The notes under the pieces: model-generated
What the model was told of the DNA's origin: nothing
Seen by the model: only the letters and a program-made list of their open reading frames with translations
The model's database searches: none
Assembly (NCBI GenBank): GCA_964530625.1
Contig: CAZHAK010000012.1
Coordinates: forward strand, 8,654-72,653
Source: an uncultured Alphaproteobacteria bacterium
GTDB taxonomy: Bacteria > Electryoneota > RPQS01
Direction: 5' to 3'
DNA length: 64,000 nucleotides
Shown here: positions 3,950 to 59,073 of the stretch, piece after piece
How positions within the stretch are numbered: the stretch's first letter is position 1
How the letters are laid out: each line of letters starts with the position of its first letter
Program-made: the position numbers and the translations under genes

Positions 3950-5608
3950 ATGATAATCATCGCATCAATCTTAATCGCCTTGGTTGTAACTCAATCAGCT
4001 CGCCCAACAATTATAGTTGTAGAAGCTGGAGAGAGCATCCAAATCGCATTAGCTTCATCAATCACTGGCGATACAGTCCTTGTTCAACCCGGCGATTATC
4101 ATGAGAGCCTTCGACTTCCAAACCACTCAGTTACACTTGCGGGGAGCTATCTATTTTCATCGGACACGATGGATATTCGCGAAACGACGCTCTTTCCTGA
4201 CAGCGTGTCACTGGACACGAATAGCTGCATAGTAGTTACTTCCGGCAATCAGATATGCCATCGCGTTGTTGGCCTAACCCTTAAAGGCGGAAAGGGTACT
4301 CAAACAAATATTTTTAATAATCAAAAGAGCGGCGGCGGGGTTTATGCCAGAAATTCTTGTGTTACAATCGAATTCTGTAGAATCCTGGATTGTAAGACAA
4401 CATTCGGCGGTGGAATTGCCGCGATTGGACCAAGCTTTGAGGTTCGCTCCGGATTTGTCGAAGTCAACAATTGTTTCATTCGAGGCTGTACAGCGCAGGA
4501 AAATGGGGGCGGTTTTTTTGCGCTGAGTTGTAGCCTCGCATTTGATCACTGTGAATTAGTTAAAGATTCCTGCTTAAATTTCTGCGGAGGAATAGAGGCA
4601 AGTCAAAGCTACATACATGGAACAAACACCACCGTTGATTCGGCCTACGGTTCTTCTAGCTCTTTGGATATTAGCACCAGTGAAGTTTACTTAAATCAAT
4701 GCAGTTTTTTACACGGCACATGTATTCCCCATCCCTTATCGAACAGCTTTTTTCACATAGGGAGTAGCTCAGGTAGAGTCGCAGCATGCACGTTCAGTGA
4801 GAATTTAACGGAGTACCCAGGAGGTTCTATCATAGGCGATCCCGCACCAGAAGTAGTTGGGTGCGTTTTTGAAAGAATCACGGCAACGATTTACACAGCG
4901 ACAGTCTTGATCGGGTACGACGATAACACTCAGTTCGCATACAACATTATTCGCGATAACGTAAACATTGCGGGAGGCGCGATCCAGCCGTTTCAGAGAA
5001 CGACCGCACGCATTCATCACAACCTTATCACGGGCAATCGGTCACTGCAAGAGAATCGTCCGTCCGCGATTTTGTGCGTCTCAAACTGCAACCCAACGAT
5101 TGACTCCAATCGAATTGAAGGCAATCATGGCAGTTCAGTCGGATTCATTATTGAGTTAGGTGAACATCACTGGGACTTATCGCGGAACTGGTGGGGGCAC
5201 GAGAGCGGCCCTTACGACGCGGTACGCAATGCGGGCGGACAGGGCGACACCATTCAAACAGATTCCGTTGTCTTTGAACCTTGGCTTCTGACTCCGCCTG
5301 AAACGTCAGTTGGCATAGGGCCCATACATCCGAAACAGCCGTTAGCGAGTACTTGGGAGATTCTGGCAGTCTATCCGAATCCGTTCAACAATTCTTTCAC
5401 AGTTTCCATTGCAGGTTTTGCACGCAGCGATTTTGAGGTGAAACTCGTAGACCTACTTGGCCGCCAGGTCGCTTCCATCCATAGCGGCTCACTAACCGGG
5501 ACATCTCTTCGTTACGATGCCGCCACGCAGCTTGCAACTGGACTATACTTTCTCGTCGCACAGGACAGCCGATCCGTTAGCGTTAAGAAAGTAGTCTTTC
5601 TAAAGTAA
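3950..5608 (+). CDS. Right-handed parallel beta-helix repeat protein (NosD/pectate-lyase-like) with a C-terminal T9SS (Por) sorting domain.
   Basis: N-terminal signal-like MIIIASILIALVVTQSA. Many G/N/C-rich beta-helix repeats. C-terminal AVYPNPFNNSFTVSI...KKVVFLK matches the Por_Secre_tail pattern. Confidence 0.65.
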   Translation: MIIIASILIALVVTQSARPTIIVVEAGESIQIALASSITGDTVLVQPGDYHESLRLPNHSVTLAGSYLFSSDTMDIRETTLFPDSVSLDTNSCIVVTSGNQICHRVVGLTLKGGKGTQTNIFNNQKSGGGVYARNSCVTIEFCRILDCKTTFGGGIAAIGPSFEVRSGFVEVNNCFIRGCTAQENGGGFFALSCSLAFDHCELVKDSCLNFCGGIEASQSYIHGTNTTVDSAYGSSSSLDISTSEVYLNQCSFLHGTCIPHPLSNSFFHIGSSSGRVAACTFSENLTEYPGGSIIGDPAPEVVGCVFERITATIYTATVLIGYDDNTQFAYNIIRDNVNIAGGAIQPFQRTTARIHHNLITGNRSLQENRPSAILCVSNCNPTIDSNRIEGNHGSSVGFIIELGEHHWDLSRNWWGHESGPYDAVRNAGGQGDTIQTDSVVFEPWLLTPPETSVGIGPIHPKQPLASTWEILAVYPNPFNNSFTVSIAGFARSDFEVKLVDLLGRQVASIHSGSLTGTSLRYDAATQLATGLYFLVAQDSRSVSVKKVVFLK

Positions 5609-43746: not shown

Positions 43747-46404
43747 ATGAAACTGTCCGCCACAATTGCACTTTCGATAGTTTGCCTGTTCTGTTTACAG
43801 TCAACGATGCTCGCCACTCCCTATTGGACGGAGGCCCAGCTTGACTCAGCGCAAGCCGCGTCCGGTACTGCGTCATTGATTCGCCACGGTGAGACCGGCA
43901 ACCGCTCGCACAGCAGATCGCTTGACGATATTGCTTACTTCGTGAAGTATCGGCAGCTTTGTGATTTTCTGGCTTCGATGCAGGTCACGACACCCGGCGC
44001 GAACTTAGGCGGGATGCGCGAGGGCGAGGTCGGCAGCGACTTCAATATCATTCAGACCGACAACACACAAGAAGCCATTCGCGTTTGGTCGCAATATTCT
44101 ATATGGACGGGCGACACCGCTCGCTATGCGCAGAACATTCGCAACGCCTGGACATATTGCACGGTCTGGCCCGCGTGGCGCGAAGAAGGCGGCGGCTACT
44201 ACGCGATGCACAACTGCGGCTGGGGATTTGAAGCGGCCTACAAATACCGCGAAGCCTACGGCGACACGAGCAAAAACTGGTACGCCGACAGTTGCGCGTG
44301 GTGGGTGAACGGTAATCCGCTAAGTCTGACTTCGATTCTGAATATCGCCGCGCAAGGCTTGGGCATCGGCGGTATGTATCCTCACGCGGTCTATCGTGGC
44401 CGCACGGATTGGCAGGACTTCACATTGGGCCGCGCGCGCATTATTCGCAATTGGTTTCAAGCAAATCCGTCGCGCTTAAATACCGAAACAAGTTGGGCAC
44501 TCTGCGCAGGCACTGCGATTTGGGGAGTCTGCAATTCACTGTGGATAGCCTATCCCGACAGCGGCGCGACGTGGATAAACCAATACGGCACGAATCTCGA
44601 AACATGGGAGTCGCCCTCATCATGGTACAACGCATTTAATACGTGGTACTCGAACGCGACGTTCAGGTTCTGGGAAATCAGTGGCGACTCACTCTATTGG
44701 CATCGCGGGGTTTTCTACGCCGACTCGCTGGTGGGTTTTGACGTGGACAACGACGGCGGCATTCCGCCGGGCACCTGCTGTATCAGCAACGGCAACGACC
44801 ATACTTGGGTCAGTGCCTACATGGGTTGGATGGGACTCGAACGGATAATTTCGTCTGCGCCGATTTCGTTTGTGGATGCGGTCGGATTTTCCAGTCCCTC
44901 AGAGGACGCTGCGTATCTTGCGGGCGATCCGCTTCCGGTTACTGCGCTGGTCGCGAATCAGGGTACGGAAGCATTGCAGGGCCGTGTCTGGGTGTGGGGA
45001 TTGAATTACTCGGACAGCGCAGATTTCACTGCTGGAGCGGGTGACGTCGTGGAGGTACCGATGAGCAATCTTTGGACGCTTGCAGACAACTCCACACTTC
45101 CTGAATCGCCTATGCTATTTTCAAGGGTGCGGGTTATCTTAGAAGGCGACACTTTGCAGGCATTAGATTCTGCGGGCTTTGATATTCGGCGCGGTGGCAT
45201 CGTGCAGGGAACTATCTCGGGCGAGTTTGACATCGCAACGTCCCCCGCCTGCTTGATTGAGTTCTATTCGGATTCCTACCCGGACTCGCTCTGGCACTCG
45301 GTAAATGTCGGCGCGGGCGAGATGTACTCCAATGGCGCTCGTCGCCTGTTGTCGGGCGGCAATCGAATGGTCGTCTACGGGCCAGCTCGCTACTTGATTG
45401 AAGAGATCGCGTTTTACCCATTAACTCCGGAAGAGAATCCGGATGATCTCGATGTGTACCTGACATCATCGGACGTTCTTCTGGTGGATGACGATCTTGG
45501 ACAAAGCTACGAGAATTATATTCTGTCAGCGCTTGATGCCAATGACAGAAATGTGCGCGTCTGGGATCGCCAGTCAACGGTGCTCGGCGATCTGTCTAAT
45601 GTGCCGTGGTTGATTTGGATGACGGGCAACGACGCGGTGACGACTCTTGATGCGCAAGACCATAATACGTTAACGGGCTTTATGCTGGCAGGCGGCGGAG
45701 TGTTATTGACGGGGCAGAACATCACGGATGATCCTCAGAACGAAGACTTCTTACGCGACATAATGCGATGCGAGGAAGATCGCTCGGATACGGACGTGCT
45801 GCGCGCCTATGGCTTAGGCGACGACCCTGACGTGGATGGACAATTCTTGTTGCTGTTAGGCTCACAAGGGGCGCAGAATCAAACAAGCCCCTCCTCTATC
45901 ACTTTGTTAAATGGAGCCACAGCGATCTTTGTCAATGATACGATCACGGAGGAAGTGTGCGGAGTATCAGGACTGCATGGATCTGGCAAGTTTATTTTCC
46001 TGAGCTTCGGACTTGAAGGAGCGTCAGGACAAGCTGGCAGTACGTCGCGCTCCGTGTTTTTATCTGCTGCAGAAGACTGGTTGACAGCACCGCTGCAAGC
46101 AACCATTGATCCACCCGTCGTGTGGAACTTCGAGTTGCTGCCGAGTTTTCCCAATCCTTTCAACGGCCAAGTGCAGATTCGCTGGCTCGCTCCAGATAAT
46201 TCTTCCCGAACTACTCTCCAAGTTTACAATCTTTTGGGCAGGCATGTGACAACCTTGTTTGACGGGTTCGGGAAAATTGGACAAAACTTGGTCACATGGA
46301 ACGGCGCAACATCAAGTGGTGTTCCGGTATCCAGCGGAACGTACTTGGTTCGCTTGACGACGCCGGACGCGACGCTGTCACACTCCATCCGCTTCATCCG
46401 CTGA
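43747..46404 (+). CDS. Large secreted hypothetical protein (about 886 aa) with a signal peptide and a C-terminal T9SS sorting domain.
   Basis: MKLSATIALSIVCLFCLQSTMLA signal. GGGAGG 6 nt upstream of the ATG. C-terminal LLPSFPNPFNGQVQIRW...IRFIR. Confidence 0.7.
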   Translation: MKLSATIALSIVCLFCLQSTMLATPYWTEAQLDSAQAASGTASLIRHGETGNRSHSRSLDDIAYFVKYRQLCDFLASMQVTTPGANLGGMREGEVGSDFNIIQTDNTQEAIRVWSQYSIWTGDTARYAQNIRNAWTYCTVWPAWREEGGGYYAMHNCGWGFEAAYKYREAYGDTSKNWYADSCAWWVNGNPLSLTSILNIAAQGLGIGGMYPHAVYRGRTDWQDFTLGRARIIRNWFQANPSRLNTETSWALCAGTAIWGVCNSLWIAYPDSGATWINQYGTNLETWESPSSWYNAFNTWYSNATFRFWEISGDSLYWHRGVFYADSLVGFDVDNDGGIPPGTCCISNGNDHTWVSAYMGWMGLERIISSAPISFVDAVGFSSPSEDAAYLAGDPLPVTALVANQGTEALQGRVWVWGLNYSDSADFTAGAGDVVEVPMSNLWTLADNSTLPESPMLFSRVRVILEGDTLQALDSAGFDIRRGGIVQGTISGEFDIATSPACLIEFYSDSYPDSLWHSVNVGAGEMYSNGARRLLSGGNRMVVYGPARYLIEEIAFYPLTPEENPDDLDVYLTSSDVLLVDDDLGQSYENYILSALDANDRNVRVWDRQSTVLGDLSNVPWLIWMTGNDAVTTLDAQDHNTLTGFMLAGGGVLLTGQNITDDPQNEDFLRDIMRCEEDRSDTDVLRAYGLGDDPDVDGQFLLLLGSQGAQNQTSPSSITLLNGATAIFVNDTITEEVCGVSGLHGSGKFIFLSFGLEGASGQAGSTSRSVFLSAAEDWLTAPLQATIDPPVVWNFELLPSFPNPFNGQVQIRWLAPDNSSRTTLQVYNLLGRHVTTLFDGFGKIGQNLVTWNGATSSGVPVSSGTYLVRLTTPDATLSHSIRFIR

Positions 46405-46408
46405 ACCC

Positions 46409-47740
46409 GTGAGCGGCTTCTTTTCGTTTCGCCGCAAGAATCCGGGGCAGGTCTTCGCGTGGGCGACCTACGATTTCGGCAACTCAGCCTTCGCGACGAC
46501 AATCCTTGCCGTAATCTTCAACAAATATTACGCGGGCGTCATCGCTGGCGGCGCGGAGGGAGTTGCGGTGATGGGAACACAGGTTCCCGGCACGACGGTC
46601 TTTAGTTTTTTTGTTTCGGCCAGTATGATTCTGGTCGCGTTGCTGGGGCCGCTACTCTCTGCTCTTTCTGATTTGGGTCACCTGAAACGGCGCATGCTCC
46701 TGCTGCATACAGCGATTGGAGTTGCCGCGACGATGATGCTCGCGACACTCGGCGAAGGCGATTGGCTGATCGGCGGAGTATGGTTTACCATCGCACAATT
46801 TGGTTTTGCCGGAGCCGCGATTTTTTACAACGCGATGCTGCTGGACATCGCGGATCCACAGGATTACGCGAAAGTCTCAAGCATCGGCTGGGCGTGGGGA
46901 TATTTAGGCGGCGGGATGCTGTTGGCTGTGAATCTTGTCATGCTTCAGTATCCGCACTTGCTGGGCCTTCCCGCGGGCTTTTTCACGGTTCAGCACTGTT
47001 TCTTAAGCGCGGCGGTTTGGTGGGCGGTGTTTACAATCCCCATCGCGCTCTCCGTGCGCGGGCAACCGTCTGCGAAAACCGTGAGGATCAAGCAAGCCTT
47101 CCGCGCGTTACTCCGCAGCCTAAGAAGCCTGCGCAAACTTCCGACATTCTCGCGCTTCTTCTTTGCATACTTGCTTTACAATGACGGGATCGAAACCGTA
47201 ATTATCATGGCGTCCATCTTCGGAGATCAGGAGTTACATATGGAAACAGGAGAGCTTGTGCTCTTCTTCCTAATGGTGCAGGGTGTCGCCTTTGTGGGAT
47301 CACTTATTTTTGGAGTGATCGCCAACCGTTGGAACAATCGCGACGCGGTTTTGTTGGGTGTGGGAATCTGGAGTCTAGTTGCGCTCTGGGGTTGGCAGTT
47401 GGGCTGGATGGGCGATGCCTTGCAAGAATACTGGTTTTTGGGAATTCTCGCGGGTCTCGTGTTGGGTGGTACTCAAGCGGCTTCGCGTTCGCTGCAAGCC
47501 ACTCTGATTCCACCCAGTCAATCTGCGGAGTTTTTTAGCTTCTTTGCGGTTTCCGGAAAGTTTGCAAGTGCGGTCGGACCGGCTATCTTCGGAATTGCCG
47601 TTTGGATCACCGGCAGCTTGCGAATCGGGATGTTGTCACTACTGATATTTTTCGTACTCGGCGCATGGCTGCTTTGGGGAGTTTCCGAAGAGCAGGGCCG
47701 TCGGGAAGCACTCGACTTTCAATCAAATAGAGATGAATAA
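46409..47740 (+). CDS. MFS transporter, Atg22/UMF1-like.
   Basis: About 12 TM segments. WATYDFGNSAF N-terminal motif. GTG start. Confidence 0.7.
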   Translation: MSGFFSFRRKNPGQVFAWATYDFGNSAFATTILAVIFNKYYAGVIAGGAEGVAVMGTQVPGTTVFSFFVSASMILVALLGPLLSALSDLGHLKRRMLLLHTAIGVAATMMLATLGEGDWLIGGVWFTIAQFGFAGAAIFYNAMLLDIADPQDYAKVSSIGWAWGYLGGGMLLAVNLVMLQYPHLLGLPAGFFTVQHCFLSAAVWWAVFTIPIALSVRGQPSAKTVRIKQAFRALLRSLRSLRKLPTFSRFFFAYLLYNDGIETVIIMASIFGDQELHMETGELVLFFLMVQGVAFVGSLIFGVIANRWNNRDAVLLGVGIWSLVALWGWQLGWMGDALQEYWFLGILAGLVLGGTQAASRSLQATLIPPSQSAEFFSFFAVSGKFASAVGPAIFGIAVWITGSLRIGMLSLLIFFVLGAWLLWGVSEEQGRREALDFQSNRDE

Positions 47741-47773: not shown

Positions 47774-48397
47774 ATGAACGTTGCGCGACTCTTTTTTGCA
47801 CTGCTGCTCACATTCAATCTATCCGCACATGCCGAGGAGATGCCCGAACTTGCGACCCTTTTGGCGCTCTTCAGCGCGAGCGCGACAGAGAACGGCACCA
47901 TCCGCTTGAATTGGACCCTCGACCAGCAATCTCCTGCCGTGATAAAATTTCGCGTTTATCGCGGCTATGAAGAACTGGGAAACTTCTCCGTCTTATCCGA
48001 GATTCCGTTTCACGCGGAACAGGGCGCGGCGGACTATCTGTTGAACGACACGTCGGCGATTCCGGGTGTGACCTACTACTACAAGCTCGCGGCACAAGGT
48101 CAACTGAACGAATCCATCTTCCCTGTCGTGATTTCGGCAGGAGTACCATTAGGCGACAAGAACGCGGGTCAGGACGACGAAGCTCCCGCGATCATTCTTC
48201 CCGGTGAGACGGTAAGACTGTACGTGCGCAAATCCGGGCACGTCAAGCTCGAACGCACAGCCCCCGAACAAAAGACACTGATTGATGGCGAGTTAGCATC
48301 GGGAGTCTATGAAGTCGAAGCGGGCCCGGCTGCTCAATCGCTGAAAGTTTGGGCGGGGCAAGCCTACGAGTTTTCGTTAAGCTGGCCGATACAATAA
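47774..48397 (+). CDS. Secreted hypothetical protein with a fibronectin-III-like segment (GVTYYYKL).
   Basis: Signal peptide MNVARLFFALLLTFNLSAHA. Confidence 0.5.
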   Translation: MNVARLFFALLLTFNLSAHAEEMPELATLLALFSASATENGTIRLNWTLDQQSPAVIKFRVYRGYEELGNFSVLSEIPFHAEQGAADYLLNDTSAIPGVTYYYKLAAQGQLNESIFPVVISAGVPLGDKNAGQDDEAPAIILPGETVRLYVRKSGHVKLERTAPEQKTLIDGELASGVYEVEAGPAAQSLKVWAGQAYEFSLSWPIQ

Positions 48398-55345: not shown

Positions 55346-56140
55346 TTGACCCATATGCGACTGGCACTGACTCTGATTCTTGGTATTTTCACATTGGGGG
55401 AGGCCGCAATCGCCGCAGACTTCGTGCGGCTGAAAAGCGGCCGCCTGATAGAGGGCGCGGTCATCCGACAAGATACAATCGCCGTCTATCTCGCCCCGTG
55501 GGATCAGCGCGCCCTCAGGCAGCCAGAGCTTCAAGTTTTCGCCCGCGACGAAGTGGAATCAATCTGGCTCGGCGGCAAACCCGCCAAAGGTGTTAGACGC
55601 AAATACACTCCGCGGCCTGGACTTGTTGAATTAGGCGGCGGATTGGGACTGCAAACATGGGCCTCCACCTTGCATCAGCGCCGACATCTTATCCAGTTTT
55701 CGACGCTGGTAGGAACTTCTATCAGTGACTATCTCGGCATGGAGTTAGTCGGTGAGATGACGGCGCCATTTGGTAAATCCGCCGATCCCGGTTTTGATTC
55801 GCTGCAATTCTCATATCAGCTTGCGCTTCACCTTGTAGGCACGCTGAAAACCAAAAGCCCGTTCACTCCGTTCGCGTATGTAGGCGCAGGAATCGGCCGC
55901 GACGTCTCGACCGCTGGCGTAACCTTGACCAAACACGCGGATGACAGGAATCTGGTGGAAGTCGGCATCGGGGCCAAACTCGGTTTCGGCGGTGTCGGGC
56001 TCCGCACAGAGATTCGCCATGCATACTATGAATGGAACAAGACTATTTACATCGGCTCGTCCAACGGGCGCGACTACTACACGACACGGCAATCCGCGGA
56101 CGCGACCAGCATGCGTGTCTCGCTGTTCACATACTTTTGA
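55346..56140 (+). CDS. Outer-membrane beta-barrel protein (signal peptide, alternating amphipathic strands, C-terminal Phe).
   Basis: LALTLILGIFTLGEAAIA signal. Ends ...LFTYF. Confidence 0.5.
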   Translation: MTHMRLALTLILGIFTLGEAAIAADFVRLKSGRLIEGAVIRQDTIAVYLAPWDQRALRQPELQVFARDEVESIWLGGKPAKGVRRKYTPRPGLVELGGGLGLQTWASTLHQRRHLIQFSTLVGTSISDYLGMELVGEMTAPFGKSADPGFDSLQFSYQLALHLVGTLKTKSPFTPFAYVGAGIGRDVSTAGVTLTKHADDRNLVEVGIGAKLGFGGVGLRTEIRHAYYEWNKTIYIGSSNGRDYYTTRQSADATSMRVSLFTYF

Positions 56141-56154
56141 TCTTGGAGATCACC

Positions 56155-59073
56155 ATGCGCCCGCAAAAGATTCTTAGCATCATATACATCGCGCTGATTT
56201 CAACGACCGCGTTCGCCGCTCAGGATTACTCCGTGGAGTTGCTGACGAAGGCTCTCGTAAAGAGCGAACAGCTTGAGTCGGGCACACTTGCCGACTGGAA
56301 GCGCGTGCGTTCAGAAGGCTTTGACGGATACGGAGTATACTGGGGAATTCCCGTCACTCTCGATGCGAAATCTTCCGGACAATCACTTGCAGAGTCCATC
56401 GCCTCAGAGCTTGACCTTGCCGATGAGTATACACTGCTTGCCTCACACGTATCTCCCACTCGCGAGTACGAGATATTCAGAGAACTCCGTAACGGACTAC
56501 CTGTGATTGGCGGCAGACTTGATATTGCCCTGAACAAAGCAGGACAGCTTACACGAGTCACTCACACGAGCTTCTCGAAGTGGAACACAAGCGGCATGCA
56601 TGCTCTGAGTCCGTTTGTCGCGGCAACGTATCTAACAGCGAACCTCGAACCAGCGAATTGGCAAGTGGTCAATGAAGAATCCTTCGCCTGCTGGTACCCG
56701 GATGCCGACGCGAGAAATTTGCGCGCAGCCTACTGGCTGAAAGTTGCAGGATCCCAGCCGCACCAAAGGTATTTTGGAATTGTAGACGCCCAGTCCGGCA
56801 AAATTTTGCTGGAATGGCCGGGCATCGCACACGAGGTGCTTACGTTGAATGTAGACCAGCCCTATTGGCAGCCCTACGATCATAGTCAGGTCTTGGAAGC
56901 GCCTTGCCAGCATCAATCAGTCAGAATAAACGGCTCAACCTTTACGACCAACGCATCCGGCGCTGTATCCGCTGAAGCCGGGTCTCAAGCGAACGTGGAC
57001 GCCTACCTGCAAGGATCATTTGTGGAAGTCGGAGAGCACGAAGAATCAAACGTCCCGTGGCAGAGCGCAACTTACTCCGCGCCCTTCGTCAACAATGAAT
57101 TTTTTTGGGATCAAGATCACACCAGCCGCCCGGCCCTTAATCTCTACTACCACACGATGTTTATTCACGACTGGTACAAGATTCTTGATCCTCCCTATGA
57201 CGCATTGGACTATCCGGTGCCCGCTGTTGCAAACTATGGCAACAGTTACGACAACGCGTTTTGGAACGGCTACGGAACTTACTACGGTTCAGGTATGACC
57301 TACGGGAATTTTGCGATGTACTCCGATGTGATCTACCACGAATACACACACGGAGTGACCGATGGAATCTATCCCGACGGTACGTTGCCCTACACGGGGC
57401 AGTCGGGCGCCATGAATGAAGCGTGGTCGGATTACTTTGCCTGCACGATCAATGGGGATCATTTAATGGGTGAGTGGCTGACGGGAAATGCCACCAGTTA
57501 TTTTCGCAATCTTCTCAGCACGACCATTTATCCACAAAATTGGGTCGGACAAGTGCATGGCGACAGCCCGTTTATCTCCGCGCCGCTGTGGACTATCCGC
57601 AATGAATTAGGCGTCGGCTACGGTGATTCCCTCGCTCACTTCGCTCGCTATGCGCTGGCGGAAACTTTCTTCGACTACTTCTTGGCTGTGCTGGAAACCG
57701 ATGACACGGACGGGAATCTCGCCAATGGCACACCGAATGACTACGTGATTTACGACGCCTTCGGCAGACACGGCATCGGACCGGGCGTAAAGCCCAATTT
57801 GGTCATTCGTAACTTTGTTATTGACGATTCGGACGGCAACGGCAACGGTTTTGCGGAAGCGGGTGAAAATGTGACCATGACGTTTTCCATTGTCAATGAC
57901 GTGACGCTCTTCCCGCCATTTGTCACGAACGCGGTGCTTCATACTGTTACGGACGACAACACAATCTCTCTCGGAGACACGGAGTTTTCGTTAGGCACGA
58001 TTGGCCCGCGCGACTCGATTCAAATCGGGCCGAACGCTGTGACCGTTTCATCAGGCGCTACGGAACATTGGGCGGTAGTTCGTCTTGACGTGACCTCAGA
58101 TCAATTTTCAGAAGAGTTCGAAACCCCGTTGGAATTCGTGATCGGTGTTCCAAAAGTGCACGTCGTCACGCGCGCGCTTGCAACGGATGTTGACCAATAT
58201 GTCACAGGCTCACTGCGTACCATGGACAAGATATTTGTGCACAAGCGTTTAAACTCATCGCAAGGCCTGGATCTGTCCGCACTGCCTGATACAGGCATGG
58301 TTGTTTGGTTGTCCGGCGACGCAACGAACTCCGGTTTGTCTGAGCAAGACATCACCACACTGACCGCTCATGTCGGCGGCGGTGGTCGCCTGGTGCTGTC
58401 CGGGAAAAATATTCTGGGTGGAATCACGGGCAGCGATTTTGCTCGCAATACTCTGGGCGTGGACGCTGTGGGCCGTTCCCGCTTGAGGATGACAACAAGA
58501 ATGAATATGCCCTTTGCCGAAGGCGACGTGTATCTATTGACAGGATCAGGCGGTGCGGCTAATCAAGATAGCATGACGATGCTGGACGTTATGACCAACT
58601 CAACTCCCGTGCTCAGGTTTGGTCCATCAGGTAATGACATTTCCGCTGTCGCCGGACCGATTGGCGGACGAACTCTCGTCTTCGGTTTTGGCATAGAAGG
58701 GATTGTCGACAATTCCCCGATCGGAAATCAATCGCGTGCTGTCTTCCTCTCGCGGCTGCTCGACTGGGCGGGCCACCCGACACCAGCCGATGATCACATA
58801 GCCCCCGTTTGGCGACCCAATGATTTCGCGCTGCAAGCAGCTTATCCGAATCCATTCAACAGCACAGTGCGACTGGATTACAACATCGGCAACGCAAAAA
58901 ACGCGCGTCTAGTCTTTTTCGATGTCTTAGGCAGAGAAGTTCATCGAGACAATTTGCCCGCTCAGTCAAACGTTTATTCGTGGCAGCCGAGCCTTGCCTC
59001 AGGCGTGTACTTCGCCATTCTGCAATCGGATTTTCAAACATCCGCGCCGCAGAAGTTAATGCTGCTTCGTTAA
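56155..59073 (+). CDS. Secreted M4 (thermolysin-like) zinc metalloprotease with a T9SS C-terminal sorting domain.
   Basis: HEYTH (HEXXH) and downstream GAMNEAWSD (Glu ligand). Signal peptide MRPQKILSIIYIALISTTAFA. C-terminal AAYPNPFNSTVRLDY...LMLLR. Confidence 0.7.
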   Translation: MRPQKILSIIYIALISTTAFAAQDYSVELLTKALVKSEQLESGTLADWKRVRSEGFDGYGVYWGIPVTLDAKSSGQSLAESIASELDLADEYTLLASHVSPTREYEIFRELRNGLPVIGGRLDIALNKAGQLTRVTHTSFSKWNTSGMHALSPFVAATYLTANLEPANWQVVNEESFACWYPDADARNLRAAYWLKVAGSQPHQRYFGIVDAQSGKILLEWPGIAHEVLTLNVDQPYWQPYDHSQVLEAPCQHQSVRINGSTFTTNASGAVSAEAGSQANVDAYLQGSFVEVGEHEESNVPWQSATYSAPFVNNEFFWDQDHTSRPALNLYYHTMFIHDWYKILDPPYDALDYPVPAVANYGNSYDNAFWNGYGTYYGSGMTYGNFAMYSDVIYHEYTHGVTDGIYPDGTLPYTGQSGAMNEAWSDYFACTINGDHLMGEWLTGNATSYFRNLLSTTIYPQNWVGQVHGDSPFISAPLWTIRNELGVGYGDSLAHFARYALAETFFDYFLAVLETDDTDGNLANGTPNDYVIYDAFGRHGIGPGVKPNLVIRNFVIDDSDGNGNGFAEAGENVTMTFSIVNDVTLFPPFVTNAVLHTVTDDNTISLGDTEFSLGTIGPRDSIQIGPNAVTVSSGATEHWAVVRLDVTSDQFSEEFETPLEFVIGVPKVHVVTRALATDVDQYVTGSLRTMDKIFVHKRLNSSQGLDLSALPDTGMVVWLSGDATNSGLSEQDITTLTAHVGGGGRLVLSGKNILGGITGSDFARNTLGVDAVGRSRLRMTTRMNMPFAEGDVYLLTGSGGAANQDSMTMLDVMTNSTPVLRFGPSGNDISAVAGPIGGRTLVFGFGIEGIVDNSPIGNQSRAVFLSRLLDWAGHPTPADDHIAPVWRPNDFALQAAYPNPFNSTVRLDYNIGNAKNARLVFFDVLGREVHRDNLPAQSNVYSWQPSLASGVYFAILQSDFQTSAPQKLMLLR

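Follow-up and report, generated by a model that had tools for sequence, protein, structure and literature searches.

The stretch analysed here, hereafter the window, comprises 64,000 nt of contig CAZHAK010000012.1 (assembly GCA_964530625.1, from an uncultured bacterium) and encodes two secreted proteins, P1 and P2, which share a domain of about 205 residues that we call X as a working name. Each protein also carries a C-terminal sorting domain (CTD) of the T9SS (type IX secretion system). The relevant features are listed below in window coordinates, with amino acid (aa) positions counted within each protein.

43747-46404, + strand: P1, a secreted protein of 885 aa (from the ATG), identified as an open reading frame (ORF)
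43819-44886, + strand: conserved N-terminal domain of P1, aa ~25-380 (approximate boundaries), with conservation across 10 homologues
45475-46089, + strand: X copy 1, P1 aa 577-781, with a predicted glutamine-amidotransferase-like fold and a match to the consensus at 11 of 11 conserved motif positions
46147-46401, + strand: T9SS type A CTD of P1, aa 801-885 (TIGR04183, 33.4 bits; cut-off 23)
56155-59073, + strand: P2, an M4 (thermolysin-family) metalloprotease of 972 aa, identified from its ORF, Pfam matches and a HEYTH motif
57076-57492, + strand: M4 catalytic region of P2, aa 308-446 (Pfam)
58153-58782, + strand: X copy 2, P2 aa 667-876, aligned to copy 1, with 7 of 11 motif positions kept
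58843-59070, + strand: T9SS type A CTD of P2, aa 897-972 (Por_Secre_tail, 28.5 bits, cut-off 27; TIGR04183, 33.0 bits, cut-off 23)
3950-5608, + strand: a third T9SS-CTD protein, a right-handed beta-helix (E 1.2e-14 with a CTD hidden Markov model, or HMM, built from homologues)

Both P1 and P2 qualify as T9SS type A cargo, with a signal-peptide-like N-terminus at one end and a TIGR04183 match at the other. P1 starts with a hydrophobic, signal-peptide-like segment (MKLSATIALSIVCLFCLQSTMLA, read from the sequence), which is followed by a conserved N-terminal domain of unknown family, a beta-sandwich region, X and the CTD; the latter also scores 26.9 bits with Por_Secre_tail (cut-off 27) and 28.3 bits with FlgD_ig. 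P2 is organized as a signal peptide (the hydrophobic, signal-peptide-like MRPQKILSIIYIALISTTAFA), an M4 catalytic region, a spacer, X and the CTD. Its assignment to peptidase family M4 is based on a Peptidase_M4 match above cut-off (PF01447, 40.3 bits against 22.4, aa 308-403) and on the HExxH zinc motif, present in the translation as HEYTH; Peptidase_M4_C covers aa 411-446. The first-pass annotation had placed the shared region between a catalytic region and the CTD, a description that suits P2 but not P1, in which no catalytic region is recognizable.

A full-length BLASTP comparison of P1 with P2 returned a single alignment of 307 aa (29% identity, E 3e-25), spanning aa 562-859 of P1 and aa 653-951 of P2. 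When the regions free of the CTDs were compared (45412-46116 against 58090-58809), 230 aa aligned with 29% identity, E 1.3e-21 and 77 bits. Shuffling the second copy 200 times yielded scores with a mean of 14.8 bits, and since none exceeded 24.3 bits, the similarity reflects homology rather than composition or chance. The pairwise check proposed in the first-pass annotation thus upheld its claim of a homologous region of about 200 aa in P1 and in the M4 metalloprotease, and its placement of this region directly upstream of the sorting tails was accurate, the X cores ending about 20 residues before the CTDs. A recent intragenomic duplication is ruled out, as copy 1 shares 55-67% identity with X domains from P1 orthologues and only 29% with copy 2. 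No third copy was found in the six frames of the window by tblastn or with the family HMM.

The second check that had been suggested, profile building, revealed a large family. An exhaustive HMMER search with a profile made from the two window sequences recovered 2024 cluster representatives at E<=1e-3, of which 921 remain at E<=1e-10 and 33 at E<=1e-30; a word-indexed homologue search with copy 1 alone as the query gave no match. The proteins that contain X range from about 250 to 5960 aa in length, and 20 of the best 150 representatives have two to five copies. An alignment of the X segments of 71 representatives with both window copies (73 sequences, referred to as A2) defined the consensus motifs LLVDDD, VIWxTG[D/N], GGxLxLSGQ[N/D]I, GxxGAxNQxSP and FxFGxEAI, with near-invariant D27, W69, G72, G101, Q102, N156, F199 and E202. 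Among 173 instances of X, 138 retain at least 10 of 11 conserved positions, and the degenerate ones are chiefly extra copies within giant proteins. Copy 2 falls within the ~10% most degenerate instances: it has lost 4 of the 11 positions (DDD to TRA, and Q102 to K), although its closest relative, P0002, retains the Gln and one Asp. The family HMM scores copy 2 at 188 bits, a value to be read with copy 2 itself included in the profile. Because its conserved site is degenerate, copy 2 may retain a structural role only, for example as a spacer.

Curated models do not capture this family. The window copies match nothing in Pfam at E<=10, and NCBIfam gave no family for the window copy and only scattered matches, at E of at least 0.016, for the 73 members. 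Within the 73 segments, weak Pfam matches were obtained to DUF4159 (26 segments), GLMA_2nd (PF22369; 14), ThuA (12), DUF4350 (11), DUF2194 (8), the GldG-type ABC_transp_aux (PF09822; 8), IFT52_GIFT (2) and GATase1_like (1), most of which we take to belong to the class I glutamine-amidotransferase (GATase1) clan. The best E-values for DUF4159, GLMA_2nd, ThuA, DUF4350 and ABC_transp_aux were between 1e-5 and 2e-3. Whole-protein scores were sometimes above cut-off, as for DUF4159 in the three-copy protein P0006 (33.0 against 25.9) and GLMA_2nd in P0027 (32.1 against 27.7), but no individual stretch of these full-length relatives passes the Pfam cut-off by itself, and model matches do not place X in ThuA (PF06283), DUF4159 (PF13709), PF09822, PF22369 or DUF4350. 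The closest of these families differ from X in context as well: ThuA, DUF4159 and the GATase1_like proteins (2gk3, 3rht), which X family members match at best with E 1e-5 to 7e-5, are mostly stand-alone cytoplasmic or membrane-anchored proteins, whereas X is a module of secreted peptidases. The X family was not described in the published literature searched for GATase1/ThuA-like domains in secreted peptidases. At the family level, the domain is therefore uncharacterized, as the first-pass annotation had it, in that the curated models of Pfam and NCBIfam miss the window copies.

The fold, on the other hand, is a familiar one. AlphaFold produced an unusable model from the two window copies only (predicted local distance difference test score, pLDDT, 43) and a confident one when supplied with A2 (pLDDT 93.4, predicted template-modelling score 0.89). 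A fold search with this model retrieved the accessory domain of Op5Man5 (7bob, score 16.6), STM3548 (2gk3, 16.1), a beta-1,2-glucosyltransferase (7vkw, 15.8), the glycoside hydrolase family 42 (GH42) beta-galactosidase 3tts (15.6), the GATase1-like protein 3rht (15.2), the GIFT domain of IFT52 (14.2), a ThuA-like protein (1t0b, 13.9), OST48 (13.4), Escherichia coli PabA (12.9, with 169 of 188 residues aligned) and a chain of human site-1 protease (8uw8_A, 12.2). On the predicted structure, X is assigned the class I glutamine-amidotransferase-like (flavodoxin-like) fold, which has a core of three alpha/beta/alpha layers and a beta-rich extension, and it belongs in the non-catalytic branch that includes ThuA, DUF4159, the GH42 middle domain and GIFT. 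The first-pass annotation had named assignment to a well-known domain as the outcome that would count against it, and structure prediction and fold search led to precisely such an assignment at the superfamily level; the claim that X is not a known domain holds only in that no curated family model matches. Because the fold is well known yet the curated family models fail to match, X is best described as a new, protease-associated family in the non-catalytic GATase1/ThuA/GIFT branch of a known superfamily. Gene3D and SUPERFAMILY may already tag X regions at the superfamily level.

PDB sequence-profile searches gave insignificant matches to BfpD (0.048), to the beta-1,2-glucosyltransferase (0.03), later backed by the fold search, and to SslE (E 0.42). 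The last is the M60-like metallopeptidase of E. coli K-12 (yghJ/sslE, L043:9551-14113), of which aa 698-726 weakly resemble the strand 3 - helix - strand 4 motif of X (11.5 bits locally). As a lead only, SslE could be a further protease with a GATase1-like accessory domain.

The position of the catalytic triad of active class I glutamine amidotransferases was located in X by combining sequence alignment with fold topology. The family profile and E. coli PabA align poorly in hhalign (probability 1.3%), and a global alignment of the consensus with PabA lends weak support to the pairing of G-Q-N-I-G with G-V-Cys79-L-G and of F-G-x-E with F-His168-P-Glu170. In the 73 sequences, the position equivalent to the nucleophile (103) is Asn in 43 and Asp in 25, that of the His (200) is Gly in 62 and that of the Glu (202) is Glu in 71; A2 as a whole contains no conserved Cys, Ser or His. 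As mapped in this way, X lacks the Cys and His of the triad, Cys79 of PabA being replaced by Asn/Asp and His168 by Gly, and retains only the Glu (E202), so that it does not qualify as an active glutamine amidotransferase. X further differs from class I amidotransferases such as PabA by an extra conserved GAxNQ loop and by its extracellular location. In X, strand 1 is followed by DDD, strand 3 by TG[D/N] and strand 4 by Q-[N/D]; together with the G-x-x-G-A-x-N-Q loop and the Glu on the last strand, they make up a set of strongly conserved acidic and amide residues that, going by the fold, should line the former active-site crevice.

The partners of X are mostly peptidases. When 116 representatives with lengths of 380-1700 aa were scanned with Pfam, the following families co-occurred with X.

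Peptidase S8: 19 of 116
Peptidase M4: 8 of 116
Peptidase M14: 6 of 116
Peptidase M1: 6 of 116
Peptidase C25: 5 of 116
Peptidase M6: 5 of 116
Peptidase C1: 3 of 116
Peptidase C11: 2 of 116
Peptidase M10: 2 of 116
Peptidase M28: 1 of 116
Chagasin-type inhibitor I42: 1 of 116
Omp28: 7 of 116
DUF1223: 3 of 116
Dockerin: 3 of 116

The commonest co-occurring Pfam family was Por_Secre_tail (61 of 116), and CarboxypepD_reg and CARDB beta-sandwiches were also frequent; no glycoside hydrolase family appeared among the 25 commonest partner families. In 100 of the best 150 representatives, 80-120 aa separate the end of X from the C-terminus, and X lies immediately ahead of a sorting domain. Giant proteins combine several copies with one or two peptidases, as in P0010 (C1-X-CARDB-C11-X), P0011 (C25-CARDB-X-X-X) and P0006, from an archaeal Saliniplasma metagenome-assembled genome (C25-Big-X...X...X). 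At the other extreme, some proteins have no catalytic domain and consist of a signal peptide, about 130 aa, X and a dockerin, and one protein of 252 aa is made of a signal peptide and X. Pairs of X domains that are 56-69% identical follow N-terminal regions with no detectable similarity to each other (verified with Pfam for P0010 with C1 and P0011 with C25, 56.5%), and the median identity of X is practically the same behind homologous (34.8%) and unrelated (33.3%) N-terminal regions. X is thus an autonomous, shuffled extracytoplasmic module, the usual partner of which is a secreted peptidase from any of about ten unrelated families and of whichever catalytic class.

When one genome per species was scanned, 36 X loci were detected, all in metagenome-assembled genomes; the scan used an alignment of 10 sequences and a single peptide pattern, so the resulting list of taxa is a biased sample. 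This list covers Calditrichota, Zixibacteria, Chloroflexia/Chloroflexota, Gemmatimonadota, Krumholzibacteriia, Latescibacterota, Fibrobacteraceae, KSB1, CSSED10-310 and Cytophagia among the bacteria, and Altiarchaeales and Methanosarcinales among the archaea; the domain is not lineage specific, contrary to what the first-pass annotation had suggested. At 8 loci from other lineages, all 8 X-bearing ORFs start with a peptidase (C1 in four, M14 in two, C25 and M1 in one each). On the C-terminal side, a T9SS sorting domain is present in only one of them and a dockerin in another, X itself is terminal in one Chloroflexia protein, and the archaeal proteins extend beyond X into other regions.

A second, non-peptidase association was also observed, in the form of fused Omp28-X-CTD (7 of 116) and DUF1223-X (3 of 116) proteins. 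Two X-dockerin proteins with no catalytic domain, P0167 and P0170, both from metagenome contigs, lie in a conserved gene order (L039:6932-10160 and L040:6974-10031), between a PEGA+Omp28 protein and a Redoxin/AhpC-TSA protein.

Our working hypothesis, which we hold with roughly even confidence, is that X is a non-catalytic accessory module of secreted peptidases whose crevice probably binds Ca2+ or a ligand. In most cases X comes after a secreted peptidase and a beta-sandwich spacer and before an anchor (T9SS CTD or dockerin) or nothing; it would not catalyse amide transfer. Its remodelled acidic crevice would bind a ligand, for which Ca2+ is the likeliest candidate, and via this Ca2+ or next to it X would bind a polymeric substrate or a glycan. 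The ligand-bound domain would then keep the peptidase head in place or in orientation on its target and would stabilize the enzyme extracellularly. Two precedents support a role in ligand binding and positioning: human site-1 protease has the order S8, P-like beta-sandwich and GIFT subdomain, the latter having an acidic pocket that holds a putative Ca2+ (PMC11231238), and GIFT domains have been proposed as sugar binders (PMC7226087). Binding of X to the cell's own envelope is unlikely, because the envelopes of the Fibrobacteres-Chlorobi-Bacteroidetes (FCB) phyla, of Chloroflexota and of archaea are too different for one module. PA, PPC, P-domain and PKD are promiscuous non-catalytic modules found C-terminal to secreted peptidases from several families, and a part in maturation or in binding the substrate has often been attributed to them. 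They share the position and the logic of X, but they are beta-sandwiches or have the PA fold, whereas X has the three-layer alpha/beta GATase1-like fold.

Several other functions can be considered, and we take them in order of decreasing probability. The nearest structural neighbours of X favour a role mainly as an oligomerization scaffold, which, like the GH42 middle (trimerization) domain and further GATase1-like accessory domains, would multimerize secreted peptidases on the cell surface or on scaffoldins. We nonetheless regard this as unlikely, given that an interface role leaves unexplained the near-invariant polar residues D27, Q102, N156 and E202 at former active-site positions, and that two to five tandem copies per chain are a pattern seen more with modules for binding or spacing. 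X is also distinct from GH42-type middle domains (Glyco_hydro_42M, Op5Man5 7bob, GH164 6t5o and 7vkw), with which it shares only 10-16% sequence identity: their partners are glycosidases and those of X are peptidases, no glycoside hydrolase domain is present in P1 or P2, and X has its own motifs (DDD, WxTGD, SGQ[N/D]I, GAxNQ and FGxE) and an extracytoplasmic location beside anchoring modules.

A rather improbable alternative is that X acts as the GIFT subdomain of site-1 protease might, by folding onto its own catalytic domain, stabilizing active-site loops and gating the substrate. The GIFT subdomain is fixed to one S8 enzyme, on which it packs, whereas X is shuffled over about ten structurally unrelated peptidase families and is also found alone or in tandem. 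A co-evolved interface between X and the catalytic domain is disfavoured because the identity of X is independent of N-terminal homology, as seen from the closely related X domains behind unrelated catalytic domains and from the near-equal medians given above. In addition, some X proteins lack a catalytic domain and others carry tandem arrays, X is structurally nearer to the accessory domains of glycosidases than to site-1 protease, and a PDB profile search at E<=10 detected no sequence similarity between X and the GIFT subdomain of site-1 protease (MBTPS1).

We give only a slim chance to the idea that X represents a new functional type, in which the remodelled triad site binds or processes peptides, amino acids or gamma-glutamyl/thiol compounds at the cell surface; if so, X would be a general co-factor domain of extracellular proteolysis in bacteria and archaea of sediment and soil. 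The gene order of Omp28, X-dockerin and Redoxin proteins, together with the Omp28-X fusions, hints at a second role of this kind. Even less credible is a cryptic enzyme that would employ Q102, N/D103, E202 and the acidic cluster of the remodelled site, for example an amidase or peptidase acting on the products of the neighbouring endopeptidase, considering that no Cys, Ser or His is conserved, that Asn occupies the nucleophile-elbow position in 59% of the sequences, that copy 2 and ~10% of the instances are devoid of several site residues and that all of the nearest structural relatives are non-catalytic.

The first-pass annotation had proposed that X could be a lineage-specific folding/attachment or regulatory module; read as a T9SS adaptor aiding the folding, recognition or surface attachment of cargo beside the CTD, this idea is in line with the predominance of X directly before CTDs and of Por_Secre_tail among its partners, but we consider it highly improbable because X is present in Chloroflexota and archaea (Altiarchaeales, Methanosarcinales and Saliniplasma), is also found with dockerins, at the extreme C-terminus with no tail, in tandem and deep within giant proteins, has a CTD next to it at only one of the 8 loci from other phyla, and is absent from the CTD cargo at 3950-5608 (Por_Secre_tail 39.6 bits, Beta_helix 29.4 bits), which the X profile does not match. 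X is therefore neither restricted to CTDs nor always beside them. We know of no T9SS in Chloroflexota or in these archaeal lineages.

The N-terminal domain of P1 (~360 aa) gave no match in Pfam, NCBIfam or PDB sequence and profile searches, and 10 homologues share the invariant residues H155-N156-C157-G158-W159, E92, E94, D105-N106-T107 and E109 as well as an invariant D332xD334xD336GG loop (332-338). Because X usually sits after a peptidase, this domain may be an undescribed hydrolase. An identical P1 protein is present on 29 blocks of public assemblies. Its representative at 50% clustering, P0004, is 59% identical to P1, is annotated from Calditrichota metagenome-assembled genomes and bears the name 'T9SS type A sorting domain-containing protein [Calditrichota bacterium]'. 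A Calditrichota-like bacterium is accordingly the most likely source of the window; TIGR04183 has been reported in Calditrichaeota (PMC5317091).

Downstream of P1, after a gap of 4 nt, lies a gene for an Atg22-like transporter of the major facilitator superfamily (46409-47740, +), followed by one for a secreted protein of 207 aa with no family match (47774-48397, +). The three genes may form an operon, as their order is also found on the public contig L001. Upstream of P2, an ORF of 264 aa (55346-56140, +) ends 14 nt before the P2 gene; its product resembles a signal peptide at the N-terminus, ends in an aromatic residue and matches OMP_b-brl weakly (18.8 bits, below cut-off), and the ORF may encode an outer-membrane beta-barrel co-transcribed with P2.

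X does not introduce a new principle, since accessory domains of the same fold are known from glycosidases and from site-1 protease. It is a small, well-folding domain and as such is suited to a direct test of the proposed binding of Ca2+ or ligand, and in bacteria and archaea it offers a counterpart to the GIFT subdomain of human site-1 protease, which is poorly understood. This block of ~205 residues, which curated models do not describe, occurs in more than 2000 sequence clusters, and defining X as a protease-associated GATase1/GIFT-like family would improve their annotation. In uncultured FCB candidate phyla, Chloroflexota and sediment archaea, the extracellular peptidases to which X is so often attached are thought to drive the turnover of detrital protein.

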